Source: Spirochaetaceae bacterium (GTDB lineage Bacteria; Myxococcota_A; UBA9160; UBA4427). Taken from it: a DNA stretch of 64,000 bases. The number at the start of each line of letters is the position of its first letter. The stretch's first letter is position 1. Shown here piece by piece: positions 14,216-40,155 of the stretch. A program made the translations under genes and the position numbers. The stretch spans positions 227,757 through 291,756 of the forward strand of contig JACKFD010000002.1 in NCBI GenBank assembly GCA_020632655.1, in the 5' to 3' direction. The notes below the pieces were generated by a model that worked only from the letters and a program-made list of their open reading frames with translations, did no database searches and was not told the DNA's origin.

Positions 14216-14683
14216 CTAGCCGCCCTCGATTGCCTGGCTGATCTCCCTCTCGGCCTCGACGATCTCGTCCAGGGCCGCCGACAGCCGCTGCTGCGACGTC
14301 TCCCAACGCTCCTTGCCAGCCGTGCGAGCCGATCTCAACTCGCTGGCGAGCTCGACTCGCGCCTGCTCTGCCCGGTCGATCGCATCCTGGACCTCGCTTC
14401 GGGCCTCATCGGAGATGCCTGAGAGGGTGCTCCTGGCTTCGTCGAGCTCGGTGTCGACACGCTCGAGGGATTCCTCCGCGCGTCGTTCGAGCGTTTCGAA
14501 ACGCTCACCTGCATAGGCCTTGGCGGATTCGTAGGCCTCACGCGTCTCCTCGCGAACCGTGCTCGCCGACACGTCGCGTTCGTCGTCGGGCTCGTTCGAG
14601 CCACACGCGAGAAGCAGCGTGGTGATGGCGAGAGTCGAGAATCCACGTGCGTACGGGTAGAGAATGGCGGGGGGGCTCGGCAT
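14216..14683 (-). CDS. Lipoprotein with helical apolipoprotein-like repeats
   Basis: ATG 14681-14683 follows AAGGAGGA. A lipobox is present (TTLLLACGS). The remainder is E/R/A-rich amphipathic repeats (ERFETLERRAEESLERVDTELDEARS...). Confidence 0.7.
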   Translation of the reverse strand: MPSPPAILYPYARGFSTLAITTLLLACGSNEPDDERDVSASTVREETREAYESAKAYAGERFETLERRAEESLERVDTELDEARSTLSGISDEARSEVQDAIDRAEQARVELASELRSARTAGKERWETSQQRLSAALDEIVEAEREISQAIEGG

Positions 14684-14924
14684 GAATGAATCCTCCTTCG
14701 GGCTCGCGTCCTGGCCCTCGAACGTTCGAATTGCACATCCCGGTTCGCGGTACGTCGTACGGTCCTTCGAATTCACGAACCGTTCCAAGGTCTCGACATG
14801 GCTGACCGCGATCGCGGCCGGTGTTTGCGTGCGTTCGTCGCGGGCGAGCGAGGCGTCGTCGACGAATCCGGGTTCGTGCGCCCGAACACCTGGATGGTCG
14901 GACACCCGTCTCCGAGCATGCCGT

Positions 14925-15347
14925 TCAGTGGCTTCGCTGCATCTTCACGATCTCACTGAGGTGGAGCTGCTCCGCTCGGATCATCGAGCGCGTGTACTCC
15001 TCGAGCTGGATGCTCTGGGATCGGACGAGCGTCAGCAGCTCCTCGTAGAGGCCGATGCCACGTCGTTCGTGTTCGATGAGCTCGGCGAGGATCGGGTCGA
15101 TCCCCTCGTGATGGGTCGCGACGACCGCACCGATTCCGAGCGAGGGCCGGCCGCCGAGGGTGGTGACTTCTTCGCCCGCAGCTCGTGCATGGTCTAGCGC
15201 CTCGCTCGCCTGTTCCTTCATCCAGCCGATGATCGGAATCCGCGCGTGGCCGAAGATCATGAGCGTGTATTGCGTGTATCGGATCGCCCCCGCGAGCTCC
15301 AGCTCCACGATTGCGTTCAACTGCTCGATCACCGCCTCCTCGTCCAT
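14925..15347 (-). CDS. Ferritin-like di-iron protein (bacterioferritin/Dps-like)
   Basis: 140 aa. It aligns by eye to the Bfr four-helix pattern with ligand motifs ELELAG...Y, EALDHA (ExxH), IEHERRG, and EEYTRSMIRAEQLH (E...H). Confidence 0.85.
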   Translation of the reverse strand: MDEEAVIEQLNAIVELELAGAIRYTQYTLMIFGHARIPIIGWMKEQASEALDHARAAGEEVTTLGGRPSLGIGAVVATHHEGIDPILAELIEHERRGIGLYEELLTLVRSQSIQLEEYTRSMIRAEQLHLSEIVKMQRSH

Positions 15348-15676
15348 CCCTCGACTCCCGATCTCGATCTTGGTCCCGTACGAGGGAGCAGGATCCGTGC
15401 CGAGCGAATCCCGTCCATCGGAAGCACCGGATCGGTCGCGCCGCAGGGGACCGGGCGGTTCCCGCGACCAGAATCCGGGAGTCGGAGCGCTTCGACCGAA
15501 TGGCGTTTCTACAAACCGCGTTACCCGTCATGGCCCGGTGGGCGTCCTCTCGCAGGGCAAGAGGGCCGTCCGGCCGGCGGGCACGCGCCTTGCTCTGTCT
15601 ACTCCCTCCCGATGTCGTCGTCGGGGCCGGTGCGGACGCCGGTGCGCTCGAGGCGACTGGAGCAAGGGAGACATCC

Positions 15677-15907
15677 ATGACACGCTGTGCTCACGCCAAC
15701 TGCTACTGCGACCTCGACGAGTCGGCCGCGATGGACGGGTACTGCAGCCCCTACTGCGCGAACGCGGGCGCACCCGCGGCCACCGACCCCGCCGCTGAAT
15801 CGGCCTGCGCCTGCCAGCACGCGGACTGCAGCGTGGCGGCCTCGCGCGAGAACAGCCGGGACCGATCCTCGCCGATTGCGATGGGTGGGGGTCCGGTTCC
15901 GGGATGA
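15677..15907 (+). CDS. Small Cys-rich protein, metallothionein-like
   Basis: ATG 15677 follows GGGAG. The 76-aa product MTRCAHANCYCDLDESAAMDGYCSPYCANAG...ACACQHADC has 9 Cys plus His in CxC/CxxxC arrangements, like bacterial metallothionein-type proteins. It is divergent from the ferritin-like gene. Confidence 0.5.
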   Translation: MTRCAHANCYCDLDESAAMDGYCSPYCANAGAPAATDPAAESACACQHADCSVAASRENSRDRSSPIAMGGGPVPG

Positions 15908-15998
15908 CCTCGGACGAGGCCGAGGCCGGGCGCGCCCGTGACCCACCCGTGCGACCTCGACGATCGGGGTGCGGGTAGCCTCCGTCTTTGCCGAATCG

Positions 15999-16157
15999 TC
16001 AGCCTTCGCGTTTGCGCCCGCGACCCAGCCAGAGTCGATGTGCCAGGCCCGGAAGAAATCCCGCGACCGTGAGGAGGACGTTGAGCCAGAACTGGGCGCC
16101 GACGCCTCGAAGGCGAGCGACGCCGAGCGGGGGAAGCATCAGCCCGGCCTTGTCCAT
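15999..16157 (-). CDS. YqaE/Pmp3-family small membrane proteolipid
   Basis: The C-terminal LPPLGVARLRGVGAQFWLNVLLTVAGFLPGLAH matches the LPPLGV...G.G..FWIN.LLT..G..PG..HA signature. The start is uncertain (ATG 16155-16157 or ATG 16137-16139). Confidence 0.65.
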   Translation of the reverse strand: MDKAGLMLPPLGVARLRGVGAQFWLNVLLTVAGFLPGLAHRLWLGRGRKREG

Positions 16158-16414
16158 GCGGATTGGCCGATCGACGGGGCCCGGATCGGGAGCTTCGTTG
16201 CGAGTGGGCCCTACGGTCGAAGGTCGGTCGACCGATTCGTCAGTGCTTCGCGCAACATTCTCCCCGGCCCCCCCGAGCCTCCCTGCCGAGGGAACAGACA
16301 TCTCCTCGCCAGTGATGCGGGGCGTGTCGTCTTCCCGACGCCGGGTCGAGCGCGCGGGCTCGTTGGTCGCCGTCTTGTCTCCGGCCGCTCGAAGCGTATG
16401 GAGGGCCGTGCGCG

Positions 16415-18076
16415 TCACGGTTCGGACATCACGATCGTGCCGGCGCGCCCGACGAGGGCTTGCCCGATCGACTCCGCGTCGCAGATGATCGTCCTTCCGC
16501 CCGTCGCGCCGAAACGACGGGCGGCCTCGACCTTGGGCGCCATCGTGCCTTCCTCGAACTGCCCGGCATCGAGCCAGCCTGCGAGCTCGTTCGGCGTCAC
16601 GCAGTCGAGCGGCCGCTGTGATTCGCTGCCGAAGTCGAGATAGACGCACGGCACGGAGGTGACGATCAGCAGCTCGTCGGCCCCCAGCTGGCGGGCGAGG
16701 AGCGCGCCCGCGAGATCCTTGTCGACGACGGCGTCCTGACCGACCAGCGAACCCGAGGCGTCACGGACGACCGGAACGCCGCCCCCGCCTGCCGCGATGG
16801 CGATCGTCCGCGCGCGCAGGAGGTCTTCGATCACGTCGACCTCGACGATCTCCATCGGTTCGGGCGACGGCACGAGACGACGCCAGCGCGCGCCGATCTG
16901 CTTCATGCTGTGGCCGCGTCGCTCGAGGGCTCGCGCGCATTCCTCTTCGTAGAAGGGACCGATCGGTTTGGTCGGTCGAGCGAAGGCGGGGTCGTCGGCG
17001 CGCACGATCGTCTGAGTGAGGACGGAGGCGATCGATCGGGTGATCCCACGCTTCGCGAGCACGTTTCGCAACGTCTGCTGCAGCACGTAGCCCAGCTCGC
17101 CCTCGGACTCGGCCACGCAGACCTCGAGGGGAATCGCATAGCTCGAACCGAGCGATGCCTCGACCCGGGCAAGCATGTGCCCGACTTGAGGCCCGTTTCC
17201 GTGTACGAGCAGCAGCTCGTCTCGCGGATCGAAGACCTCTGCGATCCGTTCGAGAGCCTGCTCCGCGAATTCGAACTGCCCTGCCATGGAGAGCTTCCCA
17301 CCGGGAGCGCGGAAGGCGCCGCCGCCGAGCAGGGCGACCCGCCTCCGAGGGGACGGTCGATTCGCGTCGGCCGCAGCGACTCGAGAGCTTCGGGTCTCGG
17401 CGATCAGATCGTCGGTGTCGATGATCCTCGCGTACCGGTTCTCGAGCGTGGCGAGCGCCGTACGATGGAGCTCCGGCGTCACGGTCGCGCAAGCGTCCGA
17501 GACGACGGTGACGAAGAAGCCGATGTCCGACGCCACCCGCGCGGCGGTGGAGATGCACTCGTTCGTATAGACGCCGGCGATGACCAGCGAATCGATGCCG
17601 ACGTTCCGGAGGATGTATTCGAGCGGCGTCGACTCGAATGCGCCGCTCGAAGTCTTGTCGACGACGATCTCGTCGTGGCGTGGGGCAACACGCGGTAGGA
17701 AGCGCGCGTCGCGCGAGCCGCGGGGGGCGTGGAGTCCGAGACGCTTGTGCTGCGCGCTCCGGTCCCGACCGTCCAGGGTCAACGATTGGATGCGAACGTG
17801 GATGACCTCGCGCCCCGCGGCGCGGAAGGCACGCTGCAACCGCTGGACGTTCGGGAGCACCGTCTGCTCGAGCCTATCCAGGTAGTACGCCCGCGCCGCC
17901 GCAGGAAGCTCGGCGAAGATCCCCTGGTCGGGCGAGGCGTCGAGTCCCTGTAGATCGACGCAGAGGAGTGCGGGGGGTGCGGTGCCGCCGCGCACCGCTC
18001 GCTCCGGCTGGATCGAGGGTGCATAGAAGCGACGGAGCGGGTCTCCGGGGCGTTCTACGGAAGCGTCGGTCGACAC
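16415..18076 (-). CDS. Fusion protein: isochorismatase-family cysteine hydrolase (N) + carbamate kinase (C)
   Basis: One uninterrupted 553-aa frame. Residues about 35-225 read ALLCVDLQ...DKTSSGAFESTPL...LVIAGVYTNECISTAAR (isochorismatase-like). Residues about 247-553 read VALLGGGAF...LVHGNGPQVG...AAGGGGVPV...MAPKVEAA (carbamate kinase). No start codon or SD occurs at the junction (about 17338-17395). Confidence 0.85.
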   Translation of the reverse strand: MSTDASVERPGDPLRRFYAPSIQPERAVRGGTAPPALLCVDLQGLDASPDQGIFAELPAAARAYYLDRLEQTVLPNVQRLQRAFRAAGREVIHVRIQSLTLDGRDRSAQHKRLGLHAPRGSRDARFLPRVAPRHDEIVVDKTSSGAFESTPLEYILRNVGIDSLVIAGVYTNECISTAARVASDIGFFVTVVSDACATVTPELHRTALATLENRYARIIDTDDLIAETRSSRVAAADANRPSPRRRVALLGGGAFRAPGGKLSMAGQFEFAEQALERIAEVFDPRDELLLVHGNGPQVGHMLARVEASLGSSYAIPLEVCVAESEGELGYVLQQTLRNVLAKRGITRSIASVLTQTIVRADDPAFARPTKPIGPFYEEECARALERRGHSMKQIGARWRRLVPSPEPMEIVEVDVIEDLLRARTIAIAAGGGGVPVVRDASGSLVGQDAVVDKDLAGALLARQLGADELLIVTSVPCVYLDFGSESQRPLDCVTPNELAGWLDAGQFEEGTMAPKVEAARRFGATGGRTIICDAESIGQALVGRAGTIVMSEP

Positions 18077-18486
18077 ACGGATGCTCCCTCGTTGCCGTCC
18101 ACCTCATCGGGCGAAGTCGAACGGGCGATTACGAACGCAAGAGAGACAGCAATGTTCATGCCTGGCGTGACGAAGTCCGAACGCGACGGCGCCGTCCGCA
18201 GGCGGGTCGGCGATGCGTTCGGAATCCCGCAGCGCTCCGAGGTGGCCACGGGGGGGCTGCAGATTGTAGAAACGATCGGACTCGCGACTCGGATGATGGA
18301 GCCCGACCGATCTCCTCGTCCTCGAGGCCCCGCCTCGAGCGAGCGGGGCAGGCCGCACCATCAGGTGTCATGGCTGTCCAGGCCGGAGGCCGGCGCGGCG
18401 ATGCTCCTTCACGGCATGTCGGCATGCGTCTTGCGTTTCCATGTCGCCAAGAACACGAGCGCAATGACGCGCTGCCTGAGAGGAAC

Positions 18487-18828
18487 ATGATGATGGACAC
18501 GACGATCAAGAAGGTGGACTCGGCGCATTCGCCTCGGGGCAGGGCCGGTGAAACCCATCTGGCGAGTGGGAAGGCGGTGGCCATGCGTCACTGGGCAGAG
18601 GCCGCCGGCGAGGGCAAGCCCCACTCGCGCCCCTACGAGACGGTGGGCTACGTGATCGCAGGACGCGCCGAAGTGGTGAGCGAAGGACAGCTGATCAAGC
18701 TCGCGCCGGGAGACTCCTGGGTCATTCCGAGTCACGCACGTCACTACTACCGGATCCTGGAGTCCTTCCAGGCCGTCGAGGCGACGAGTCCTCCTGCTCA
18801 CGTCTTCCGTCGCAGCGAAGAGGAGTAG
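18487..18828 (+). CDS. Cupin-domain protein
   Basis: 113 aa. ETVGYVIAGRAEVVSEGQLIKLAPGDSWVIPSHARHYYRI shows the cupin two-motif pattern. There is a triple ATG at 18487-18495. It is divergent from the fusion gene. Confidence 0.7.
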   Translation: MMMDTTIKKVDSAHSPRGRAGETHLASGKAVAMRHWAEAAGEGKPHSRPYETVGYVIAGRAEVVSEGQLIKLAPGDSWVIPSHARHYYRILESFQAVEATSPPAHVFRRSEEE

Positions 18829-19349: not shown

Positions 19350-20657
19350 TCAGGTCGACACATCGACGGCCCGATCGCTCTTCGTCGCTGGAGGGGGGGC
19401 AGCTGATTGCGCATCGTCGTCGGGAAATGGGTCGCTTCCGCGGTAGAGCCACTTCAGGCCGATCGGCGTGAAGAGGGTCGTCGTGATCGCGGTGATGACG
19501 ATGGCCGAATAGAGCGACGCGACGATCGCACCGGGTGGATCGGGTACGGAGAAGAGACCGGCGCGAAGGGCCACATCGGCCACGATCAGCTCGACGGCGC
19601 CTCGCGCATTCATGCCGATGCCTACGGCCAACGAATCTCGCGCATCCATGCCGCTCAGTCGGGCGGGAATACCCGCCCCCAGCAGCTTGCCGGCCGTTGC
19701 GGCGAGGACGAGCGTCGCAAGGAAGGCCGGCGCCTGGATCAGCGCCTCCCCGCTCACGTGGATGCCGATCGACGCGAAGAAGACGGGCGCGAAGAATCCA
19801 TGGGTCAGCGCGCTCACCTTGCCGAAAACGTCGTCGTAGGTCTCCTCGTCGATCGTATTTCGCACGAAGAAGAGACCCGCCAGGAACGCCCCGATCAGGA
19901 AGTGCATCGAGAGGGCCTCCGCGAGGACCGCGTAGGCGAGAGCGGCGAGAATCAGGAAGCTGAACTCGAATTCGTGTCCGCGCAGCGCTCCGATCTTGCC
20001 GCCGAGCCAGGGGAAGAGGAATCGCCCGATCAGGATCGCGATGGCGAAGTACAGAGCCACTCGACCAGCGAGCGTGAGAAGTGCCGCAGTGTCGGGCTGG
20101 TGGCCGGTCTGGAGCACCGCGGTCAAGATCGCCAGCAGGAGCAGACTGAGTACATCATCGACGATCGCCGCCGAGACGATGAGACGCCCGGCGGACGTAT
20201 CGAGTCGGCCCATCGACAGCAGCACGCCGACCGAGACCGGCACGGCCGTGACGGCGAGCGCGGCGCCGATGAAGAGGGCCTGGGCGGATCGAAGTTCGCT
20301 CGCGGGCAGGAGCCAGCCACCGACCCCGATTCCGAGGGCCAGGGGGAGAGCGAGGCCACCGACGGCGATCACGATCGCCCGCCCGGAAGCTTCGGCGAGC
20401 TTCCAGGGGCGGAGGTCGAGGCCTGCCATCAGCATCAGGAAGAAGATTCCAAGGTCCGTGATCGCGTCGAATACGGGATCGTCGGGGAGCTCCGCGAGGA
20501 CCGGGAAGGCGGCGCCATGGTTCGTGACGACGATTCCGAGCAGTACGCCGGCGAGCAACTCACCGACGAGGGCGGGCTGTCCGAGTCGGACGGCAACCTC
20601 CCCGACGAGTCGGGTGGCGACGAGCAGCACCAGGAGGACGTAGAGGACCTCCATCAC
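19350..20657 (-). CDS. Cation:proton antiporter (CPA2/Kef-type membrane domain)
   Basis: 435 aa, about 12 TM. The N-terminus MMEVLYVLLVLLVATRLVGEVAVRLGQPALVGELLAGVLLG is typical of Na+/H+-K+/H+ exchanger family proteins. Confidence 0.85.
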   Translation of the reverse strand: MMEVLYVLLVLLVATRLVGEVAVRLGQPALVGELLAGVLLGIVVTNHGAAFPVLAELPDDPVFDAITDLGIFFLMLMAGLDLRPWKLAEASGRAIVIAVGGLALPLALGIGVGGWLLPASELRSAQALFIGAALAVTAVPVSVGVLLSMGRLDTSAGRLIVSAAIVDDVLSLLLLAILTAVLQTGHQPDTAALLTLAGRVALYFAIAILIGRFLFPWLGGKIGALRGHEFEFSFLILAALAYAVLAEALSMHFLIGAFLAGLFFVRNTIDEETYDDVFGKVSALTHGFFAPVFFASIGIHVSGEALIQAPAFLATLVLAATAGKLLGAGIPARLSGMDARDSLAVGIGMNARGAVELIVADVALRAGLFSVPDPPGAIVASLYSAIVITAITTTLFTPIGLKWLYRGSDPFPDDDAQSAAPPPATKSDRAVDVST

Positions 20658-39168: not shown

Positions 39169-40155
39169 CTAGTACGGGCCCACGCCCGCGAGGCCGACCG
39201 ACTGGATCGCCCACCAGTAGAGGGGGATTCCGATGATCACGTTGAACGGGAAGGTCAGGGCGAGGGACATGGGGACATAGAGGCTCGGGTTGGCTTCCGG
39301 GAGCGAGAGGCGCAGGGCGGCCGGGACGGCGATGTAGCTCGCGCTCCCGCCGAGCACCGCGAGCAGGAGTGCGTCGCCTGCGTCGAGTCCGATCGACCAT
39401 GCGAGCCCGATCGCAAGGGCGGCGTGCGCGGGCGGCGCGACGATCGCGAAGACGAGCGGTCCGAGTCCGGCCGCGTGCAGCTCTCGGAGCCGGCGCGCAG
39501 CGAGGAGCCCCATCTCCAGCAGGAAGAAGCAGAGGACACCCTTGAACGGACTGCTCACGAAGGGCGCGACATCGAGGAATTCCGCGGGACCGATCGTCAT
39601 GCCGATGACCATCGACCCCAACAACAGGAAGACGGCCGGATTGAACGCGGCCTCCCGCAGCAGCCCGCCCCAGTCGAGCGGCGGCCTCGTCTCCGGGCTC
39701 GGCCCGCCGGCCGGGAATCGCTGTGCGAGCAGGATGCCCATCACGATCGCCGGCGACTCCATGAGTGCCATCGCGGCCACCATGTGCCCGCCGTAGCCGA
39801 CGCCCGTCTGGTCGAGGAAGCTCGTCGCGACGACGAAGGTCACCGCCGAGATCGAGCCGTACGTGGCCGCGACCCCGGCCGCGTTCGTCGATCCGAGAGA
39901 GCGCCGAAGCAGGAAGAACGTCCAGACCGGCGTCATCACGGACAGCGCGACGGCGGCGCCCAGGCCCGCGAGGACGTCCGATGTGAGGCCGGCTTCGTGG
40001 AGCTCATGGCCGCCCTTGATTCCGATGCTGAGAAGCAGGTAGAGGGAGAGGAAGCGCGCCACGGGTTGGGGGATCTCGAGGTCCGAGCGCACGAGGCGCG
40101 CCGCGACGCCGAGGGCGAAGAAGAGGACGGGGGCAGAGAGCAGGTTTTCCAGCAT
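39169..40155 (-). CDS. sbtA: SbtA-family sodium-dependent bicarbonate transporter-like permease
   Basis: 328 aa. LSAPVLFFALGVAARLVRSDLEIPQPVARFLSLYLLLSIGIKGGHEL matches the Sbt_1/DUF897 family N-terminus. It has about 10 TM. Confidence 0.85.
   Translation of the reverse strand: MLENLLSAPVLFFALGVAARLVRSDLEIPQPVARFLSLYLLLSIGIKGGHELHEAGLTSDVLAGLGAAVALSVMTPVWTFFLLRRSLGSTNAAGVAATYGSISAVTFVVATSFLDQTGVGYGGHMVAAMALMESPAIVMGILLAQRFPAGGPSPETRPPLDWGGLLREAAFNPAVFLLLGSMVIGMTIGPAEFLDVAPFVSSPFKGVLCFFLLEMGLLAARRLRELHAAGLGPLVFAIVAPPAHAALAIGLAWSIGLDAGDALLLAVLGGSASYIAVPAALRLSLPEANPSLYVPMSLALTFPFNVIIGIPLYWWAIQSVGLAGVGPY

Follow-up and report, generated by a model that had tools for sequence, protein, structure and literature searches.

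The window analysed here is a 64,000-nucleotide (nt) stretch of contig JACKFD010000002.1 with a guanine-plus-cytosine (GC) content of 69%. On its minus strand lies a gene in which an isochorismatase-family cysteine hydrolase and a carbamate-kinase-type domain are joined in one polypeptide of 553 amino acids (aa). Positions are given in window numbering, and the features are collected in Table 1. The open reading frame (ORF) begins with GTG and contains no internal stop; the GC contents of its three codon positions (0.72, 0.50 and 0.83) are typical of genes in a window of this composition, from which we take it to be a genuine coding sequence. The NCBI model of an identical protein from a Myxococcales metagenome-assembled genome (MAG; P0001) is 526 aa long, its start being placed 27 codons downstream, and it loses the DPLxxFY segment. 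We prefer the 553-aa start because of the GAGGGAG sequence upstream of the GTG and the conservation of DPLxxFY. Among the 11 fusions aligned, residues D12, P13 and Y18 of this N-terminal extension show no variation or almost none; the extension is also found in stand-alone relatives of the hydrolase, and its aligned counterpart in the BiuH-like domain of P0279, a fusion of the opposite domain order, is the segment DPYKWPY.

A sequence-only reading of the window had claimed that a single 553-aa frame joins the two enzymes, and this was borne out. A JGI metagenome contig of independent origin (L095; 3216 bp) matches window positions 14643-17858 with 99.9% identity and no gaps, and it spans the junction, where an indel would have split the frame into two genes. 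P0001 is 100% identical and contains both domains, and ten further homologues of 53-76% identity carry the same two domains in the same order. An assembly or sequencing artefact, that is, two genes merged by a frameshift or by a chimeric contig, was considered and rejected, because L095 is gapless across the junction, the 11 protein clusters come from different samples and lineages, and both halves give the same tree; the chance of such an error is practically nil. The junction had been placed at about 17338-17395 with a linker of about 20 aa, which agrees with the linker delimited here. P0001 is named "isochorismatase family protein" by NCBI and other family members "carbamate kinase"; among the names found for the fusion proteins none mentions both domains.

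Searches with profile hidden Markov models matched PF00857, PF00696 and TIGR00746 and found both domains complete. In the N-terminal half, where a complete cysteine hydrolase had been proposed, the PF00857 match (127.3 bits against a gathering cut-off of 27) covers positions 2-175 of the 175 of the Pfam profile, and the triad Asp41/Lys141/Cys174 is intact and does not vary among the 11 fusions. Lys141 corresponds in alignment to the catalytic DK lysine, and Cys174 is invariant in the stand-alone hydrolase family as well. The closest solved structures are 3hb7, 6xix and 6xjm. The named matches are all weak (BiuH, the 6xix cysteine hydrolase, RutB and N-carbamoylsarcosine amidase) and suggest that this half sits nearest the amide/ureide-handling branch of the isochorismatase family. 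It falls below every named equivalog cut-off of NCBIfam, with 68 bits against 370 for BiuH, 50.3 against 378 for RutB, 26.5 against 174 for PncA and 23.7 against 310 for YcaC. The fold and the Asp-Lys-Cys triad are common to this half and to BiuH, TrtA, RutB and N-carbamoylsarcosine amidase, but it lies far under the cut-offs of BiuH and RutB and has an insertion (aa 99-135) that is specific to its own family.

The C-terminal half is of full length, AA_kinase (PF00696) being matched at aa 250-530 and arcC (TIGR00746) at aa 247-550, which correspond to positions 4-308 of the 309 of the NCBIfam profile. Its best solved relative is the carbamate kinase of P. furiosus (1e19; 1.1e-68), residues 3-313 of which align to aa 244-550 with small gaps only. 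The motifs HGNGPQVG (aa 292-299) and GGGGVPV (aa 430-436) are present, and HGNG (292-295), Lys370, GGGG (430-433), Asp452-Lys453-Asp454 and Lys515 are invariant in all 11 fusions; the roles of the residues for catalysis and binding were taken from PMC3659122. The claim of a complete carbamate kinase with these two motifs thus held for length and motifs, but the domain is not fully canonical. It scores under the curated cut-offs (310.5 bits against 358.25 for TIGR00746; 259.6 against 266 for NF009007), whereas its stand-alone relatives clear NF009007 with 292-300 bits. Where other carbamate kinases read GGNA, the window protein reads GGGA, with Gly253 in the place of Asn; among the 11 fusions this position is G in six, S in two and N, E and H in one each, as against N in 108 of the 109 nearest stand-alone kinases. 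The Gly-Asn of this β1-αA loop has been termed invariant in all carbamate kinases, and the Asn side chain has been proposed to bridge the ADP β-phosphate and the transferred phosphoryl group (PMC3659122, PMC3474736). With regard to a loss of catalytic residues, then, the hydrolase triad is intact and the kinase residues are kept except for the loop Asn. Like the ArcC/AllK-type carbamate kinases (1e19 of P. furiosus, 1b7b/2we5 of E. faecalis and 3kzf of Giardia), to which it aligns end to end, the kinase half keeps the protruding subdomain and the equivalents of HGNG, Lys370, Asp-Lys-Asp 452-454 and Lys515. The fusion differs from them in its added N-terminal hydrolase, in GGGA for GGNA, in its sub-cut-off scores and in its position outside arc, agu and all clusters.

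The linker between the halves varies from about 15 to 30 aa among the 11 fusions, the spacing of the RYAR and LLGG anchors on either side being 31-46 residues. An AlphaFold model of medium confidence, built from the 11 sequences only and lacking an inter-domain error estimate, gave a predicted local distance difference test (pLDDT) score of 73 and a predicted template modelling (pTM) score of 0.64. The kinase domain was predicted at full length and with high confidence; pLDDT fell below 50 at the linker (aa 232-240) and at the insertion of aa 99-135. Because the linker is variable and unconserved and model confidence is low there, an inter-domain tunnel cannot be claimed.

The architecture was not recognised as that of a described enzyme when first read from the sequence, and this stands: it occurs in 11 clusters of 5.8 billion (clustered at 90% identity), and no paper joining carbamate kinase with an isochorismatase or cysteine-hydrolase fusion was found in the searchable literature. 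An end-to-end match was obtained in 1 of 1.84 billion representatives at 50% identity, and the fusion is present in 2 of 185,579 species-representative genomes, namely one Polyangiaceae MAG and one Lysobacterales MAG (HN14.bin.37). When 241 million metagenome records were scanned, a single fused locus stood among the 80 best loci kept, and it was the window's own sequence. Neighbour-joining trees were constructed for each half from the fusions and about 100 of its nearest stand-alone relatives. In both trees the fusions group as a single clade (bootstrap 99/100, kinase; 96/100, hydrolase) that is subdivided in the same manner, which argues for a single origin of the fusion and its subsequent inheritance as a unit. 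The fusion is ancient, arose once and has been maintained, both halves being retained at identities as low as about 50%. The superfamilies of the two halves are well known; it is the combination that is rare, and a coupled chemistry for it would be plausible.

A widespread stand-alone hydrolase of about 245 aa (e.g., P0219 of Methylomonas methanica) is paralogous to the hydrolase half; N-terminal extension included, the two are 55-60% identical over 92-97% of that half. In the 185,579 species genomes 221 such relatives were found. Around the active site the motifs are almost identical, and those common to both are ALLCxDxQxLDA, RIQSLTxDGRDRSxxHKRLGL, KTxSGVF, GVYxNECxST and DRYAR, but the fusions form their own clade, bear the kinase and are not preceded by an M20 gene. 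At 78 stand-alone loci from species genomes (L017-L094), by comparison, a gene for an amidase of the M20 hydantoinase/carbamoylase family lies directly upstream of the hydrolase and on the same strand in 76, stop and start often overlapping. A sodium/solute symporter is present at 59 of these loci, an ATCase-like carbamoyltransferase at 58 and an AsnB-like glutamine-hydrolysing amidotransferase at 57; all five genes occur together at 52, and no carbamate kinase was found at any of the 78. With a 154-aa protein these make up a six-gene module, sometimes accompanied by MarR, in Verrucomicrobiales, marine Planctomycetes, Leptospiraceae, Polyangiaceae and Gammaproteobacteria (Methylomonas methanica, Chromatiales and Ectothiorhodospira). 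The module is widespread, with at least 52 complete copies among the 78 loci, and apparently uncharacterised.

Every named NCBIfam match of the M20 protein acts on ureido groups (allantoate amidohydrolase, N-carbamyl-L-glutamate amidohydrolase and carbamoylases), and the third-best NCBIfam match of the AsnB-like protein is N-acetylglutaminylglutamine amidotransferase. We surmise that an N-carbamoyl amino-acid amide would be made by the carbamoyltransferase together with a C-terminal amidotransferase, and that the M20 amidase and the cysteine hydrolase would dismantle it. A candidate for this compound is the osmolyte N-carbamoyl-L-glutamine 1-amide, for which no genes are named in the searchable papers that mention it. 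Since the M20 partner, to judge by its family, should remove the carbamoyl group, the cysteine hydrolase of the module is most simply an amidase that releases ammonia.

Myxococcota and Planctomycetota supply the nearest relatives of the kinase half, a clade of stand-alone kinases (55-59% identity) from which it derives. In three of three loci such a kinase is followed by a conserved protein of 440 aa without a Pfam family, and in P0083 and P0242 the kinase is fused to that protein. A profile of the 440-aa protein gave a weak, partial match to cyclic 2,3-diphosphoglycerate synthetase (cDPGS; 9sxb, E = 5e-6) and a weak one to HypB-type P-loop proteins, and also matched P-loop GTPases. A split version of the fusion, with a stand-alone kinase beside an isochorismatase-family gene, was looked for at these loci and rejected, the gene that follows being that of the P-loop protein in all three.

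Carbamate kinase has been joined to a hydrolase of this superfamily in another form. In P0279, about 100 aa of spacer separate a canonical carbamate kinase (GGNA; 370 bits to NF009008 against a cut-off of 361) from the biuret-hydrolase-like domain that comes after it (328 bits to BiuH against a cut-off of 370). About 30 clusters show this reverse order (P0279 and P0389-P0421), among them proteins of cultured Cellulomonas species such as C. wangleii (P0415) and C. wangsupingiae (P0418), of metagenomes and of eukaryote transcriptomes (Stereomyxa, MMETSP; P0408/P0409); NCBI names the Cellulomonas proteins simply "carbamate kinase". Like the window fusion, they hold the same two enzyme families in one polypeptide and are uncharacterised. 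They differ in domain order, in their canonical GGNA kinase, which is 40% identical to that of the window fusion, and in a hydrolase of the biuret-hydrolase subfamily (265-369 bits to BiuH as against 68 here) that is 29% identical to ours. With such low identities in both domains, we consider the reverse-order fusion an independent event.

Other fusions turned up in the same searches (P0254, P0282, P0336, P0261, P0346, P0364 and P0438). They include AllH, a subunit of oxamate carbamoyltransferase, joined to carbamate kinase (P0254/P0282), OTCase joined to carbamate kinase (P0336), tandem hydrolase-hydrolase proteins, and an isochorismatase-family domain in a protein of the amidase family (PF01425). 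The AllH and OTCase fusions resemble the window protein in that carbamate kinase is joined to a pathway partner handling a labile carbamoyl intermediate; AllH and OTCase, however, form carbamoyl phosphate, and the partner in the window fusion is a cysteine hydrolase, an enzyme not known to do so.

Gene neighbourhoods were compared for six homologues of the fusion on seven contigs and for the window, seven distinct contexts being counted. No conserved neighbour is common to them, an M20 gene lies directly upstream of the fusion in none of the seven, and six of the seven show neither a conserved neighbour nor an adjacent transcarbamoylase. The exception is L002, in which the fusion is 3 kb away from a full set of the six module genes, a separate hydrolase paralogue among them. 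In the Polyangiaceae MAG C1C2.bin.25, the fusion (L015) and the module (L023) are on separate contigs. Within the 64-kb window no carbamoyl-metabolism genes were detected by tblastn with M20, transporter, ATCase-like, AsnB-like and cDPGS-like queries, nor by Pfam on 20 other window ORFs. The 410-bp region upstream of the gene gave no Rfam match to a riboswitch or other RNA at E <= 0.1, and a consensus scan for promoters and terminators was uninformative, with 0 promoters and with terminator-like sites as frequent as by chance.

The divergently adjacent cupin gene noted earlier is real, though it is not a conserved neighbour; the same applies to the genes for Pmp3, for the Na+/H+ exchanger and for acyl-CoA dehydrogenase. 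Genes for the transport of cations or potassium are also found close to the fusion in L006 (Na+/H+ exchanger) and in L003 (TrkA/TrkH), and these transport neighbours, none of them conserved, may hint at a theme of ion or osmotic stress. The C-terminal part of an ORF at 15311-15907 (+) is a short Cys-rich stretch (MTRCAHANCYCDLDESAAMDGYCSPYCANAG...CACQHADC) resembling a peptide that binds metal or is metallothionein-like. In carbamate chemistry ammonia has bicarbonate/CO2 as its partner, and a gene of the Sbt_1 Na+-dependent bicarbonate transporter family (377 bits) lies at 39169-40155 (-), about 21 kb from the fusion, with no linkage evident.

Table 1. Features of the fusion gene and its surroundings in the window, and locations of the gene sets of stand-alone relatives
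Feature	Position	Strand	Basis or remark
Complete coding sequence of the 553-aa fusion protein, stop included	16415..18076	(-)	GTG start; same architecture in 11 protein clusters
Shine-Dalgarno-like GAGGGAG, 7 nt 5' of the GTG	18084..18090	(-)	Read from the sequence (plus strand ctccctc)
Conserved N-terminal extension (DPLxxFY...), aa 10-35, before the hydrolase core	17972..18049	(-)	Alignment of 11 fusions
Isochorismatase-family cysteine hydrolase domain, aa 36-223	17408..17971	(-)	PF00857, 8.7e-37
Codon of the nucleophile Cys174 (TGC)	17555..17557	(-)	Aligns to the Cys replaced by Ser in PDB sequence 6xj4
Inter-domain linker, about aa 226-243 (SSRVAAADANRPSPRRR), rich in Ala/Arg/Pro/Ser	17348..17401	(-)	Unconserved in 11 fusions
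Carbamate-kinase-type domain, aa 244-550, protruding subdomain included	16427..17347	(-)	TIGR00746, 310.5 bits
Codon of Gly253 (GGC), position of Asn in GGNA; reads GGGA	17318..17320	(-)	Alignment
Small cupin, Cupin_2, divergent neighbour	18487-18828	(+)	
Pmp3 proteolipid	15999-16157	(-)	
Na+/H+ exchanger	19350-20657	(-)	
Ferritin-like protein	14925-15347	(-)	
Six-gene module of the stand-alone hydrolase	L009 6296-13362; L002 10785-17526; also L010		L009 is Methylomonas methanica CP002738
Stand-alone kinase and 440-aa protein pairs	L012 7001-9285; L013 7001-9475; L014 3066-5344		

The reading that we put forward, with a probability of roughly one in three, is that the fusion would be a self-contained bifunctional enzyme in which the hydrolase yields carbamate and the tethered kinase captures it directly as carbamoyl phosphate. 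The N-terminal cysteine amidohydrolase would use Asp41, Lys141 and Cys174 to hydrolyse a ureido or amide compound, probably an N-carbamoyl amino acid or its amide, as suggested by the gene module of the closest relatives. The C-terminal kinase would then, with ATP, convert the short-lived carbamate to carbamoyl phosphate, so that the carbamoyl group would be salvaged for one ATP and the product could feed carbamoyltransferases. In this scheme we infer the substrate class, carbamate rather than ammonia as the product, the direction of the kinase and the transfer of the intermediate between the domains. The carbamate kinase of P. furiosus (1e19), the best solved relative of the kinase half, is the precedent for an enzyme of this kind that works in the synthetic direction.

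Several observations favour direct capture. Both halves are full-length, with catalytic residues conserved in all 11 homologues; RutB and N-carbamoylsarcosine amidase are among the nearest named relatives of the hydrolase half; and in L002 the ATCase-like carbamoyltransferase of the module, a potential consumer of carbamoyl phosphate, lies 3 kb from the fusion. Carbamate kinase and isochorismatase-family hydrolases were joined in at least two independent events, which favours a real functional coupling, such recurrence being expected for consecutive steps with a common labile intermediate. The genes of known catabolic carbamate kinases usually cluster with that of the enzyme that forms carbamoyl phosphate, as in allFGHK (PMC12625717) and the arginine deiminase cluster. 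The isolated position of the fusion gene fits a module that needs no dedicated partner.

The proposal that the fusion is a carbamate-capture module was thus strengthened in part, by the completeness of both domains, by their rarity in combination and by the second, independent fusion, but other findings weigh against it. The pairing of the relatives with M20 genes points to ammonia release, the stand-alone hydrolase being more likely an amidase, to judge from its gene neighbours. In the kinase half the Asn of the Gly-Asn loop is gone, and evolution has been faster than in the hydrolase half; either its activity or its substrate may be a different one now. The model tells nothing about the placement of the domains, and the linker between them is both variable and unconserved. 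To our knowledge, moreover, all experimentally established bacterial carbamate-kinase pathways run towards ATP.

Direct capture stands only slightly ahead of an arginine-deiminase-like, ATP-yielding route of which the first and last enzymes would be fused, a possible if somewhat less probable explanation. Here the amidase would take ammonia off an N-carbamoyl amino-acid amide, a separate ATCase-like transcarbamoylase would release carbamoyl phosphate by phosphorolysis, and the kinase would use it with ADP to form ATP, an energy-conserving alternative to the hydrolytic route of the M20 carbamoylase. The order of hydrolase, transcarbamoylase and kinase is that of the known carbamate-kinase pathways. 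The amidase role suggested for the stand-alone hydrolase as partner of the M20 carbamoylase would suit the first step and the ATCase-like protein present at 58 of 78 loci the second, and two fusion-bearing organisms also hold the module, as described above. Carbamate kinase is fused to other pathway partners (AllH and OTCase), and biuH is reported beside allFGHK in comammox Nitrospira (PMC12625717). However, the fused steps would not be consecutive, which makes a recurrent, independent fusion harder to explain, and a transcarbamoylase is absent from six of the seven fusion contexts and from the whole 64-kb window. For the reverse, ATP-yielding direction suggested earlier, a separate transcarbamoylase would be needed between the two enzymes; the hydrolase cannot there be acting on carbamate.

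It is unlikely, though by no means fanciful, that the kinase half has ceased to function as a carbamate kinase and serves as a ligand-sensing or oligomerisation module regulating the hydrolase, or phosphorylates some other substrate. This would accord with the variety of residues (G, N, E, H and S) at the loop position that is Asn in nearly all stand-alone relatives, with scores below curated cut-offs that those relatives pass, and with a faster divergence than that of the hydrolase half, pairwise identities for hydrolase and kinase ranging from 85 and 76% down to 67 and 49% and being lower for the kinase in every pair. The parent clade, being paired with the cDPGS-like P-loop protein and not with carbamoyl metabolism, is itself of uncertain physiological substrate. 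On the other hand, the catalytic residues and glycine motifs listed above and the protruding subdomain are invariant in all fusions, the domain is full-length and predicted with high confidence, and the loop acts mainly through backbone amides (PMC3659122), which are still present. A very improbable variant would have the hydrolase deliver ammonia, which would combine with CO2 to give carbamate for phosphorylation by the kinase. Glutamine-dependent carbamoyl phosphate synthetase couples a hydrolase to a carbamate-phosphorylating site and is the functional analogue, and the probable amidase role of the hydrolase family agrees with this variant. No tunnel could be demonstrated in the window fusion, which has no carboxylation site; its linker is unconserved, and without a tunnel the scheme is chemically weak. 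Free ammonia would diffuse from a flexibly tethered domain, and carbamate forms non-enzymatically slowly in comparison with diffusion.

Direct capture can be extended, tentatively, to a compact, glutamine-free carbamoyl phosphate synthase or salvage enzyme, in which an S-carbamoyl-enzyme would form from a ureido compound and nascent carbamate would pass to the tethered kinase at the cost of one ATP. In a bolder version, phosphate would attack the thiocarbamate and give carbamoyl phosphate directly, and the kinase would then make ATP from a ureide without an OTCase-type transcarbamoylase. If either version is true, the two independent fusions would point to a way of conserving the carbamoyl group that recurs and has gone unrecognised.

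Carbamate is not stable enough to count as a normal metabolite, and in the known routes either a large synthetase makes carbamoyl phosphate at the expense of two ATP or carbamate kinase only harvests ATP. The existence of a hydrolase-kinase fusion in two independent forms suggests a third arrangement, in which the hydrolysis of a ureide would be coupled directly to the formation of carbamoyl phosphate, or else a new pathway for N-carbamoyl compounds that would resemble the arginine deiminase route and yield ATP.

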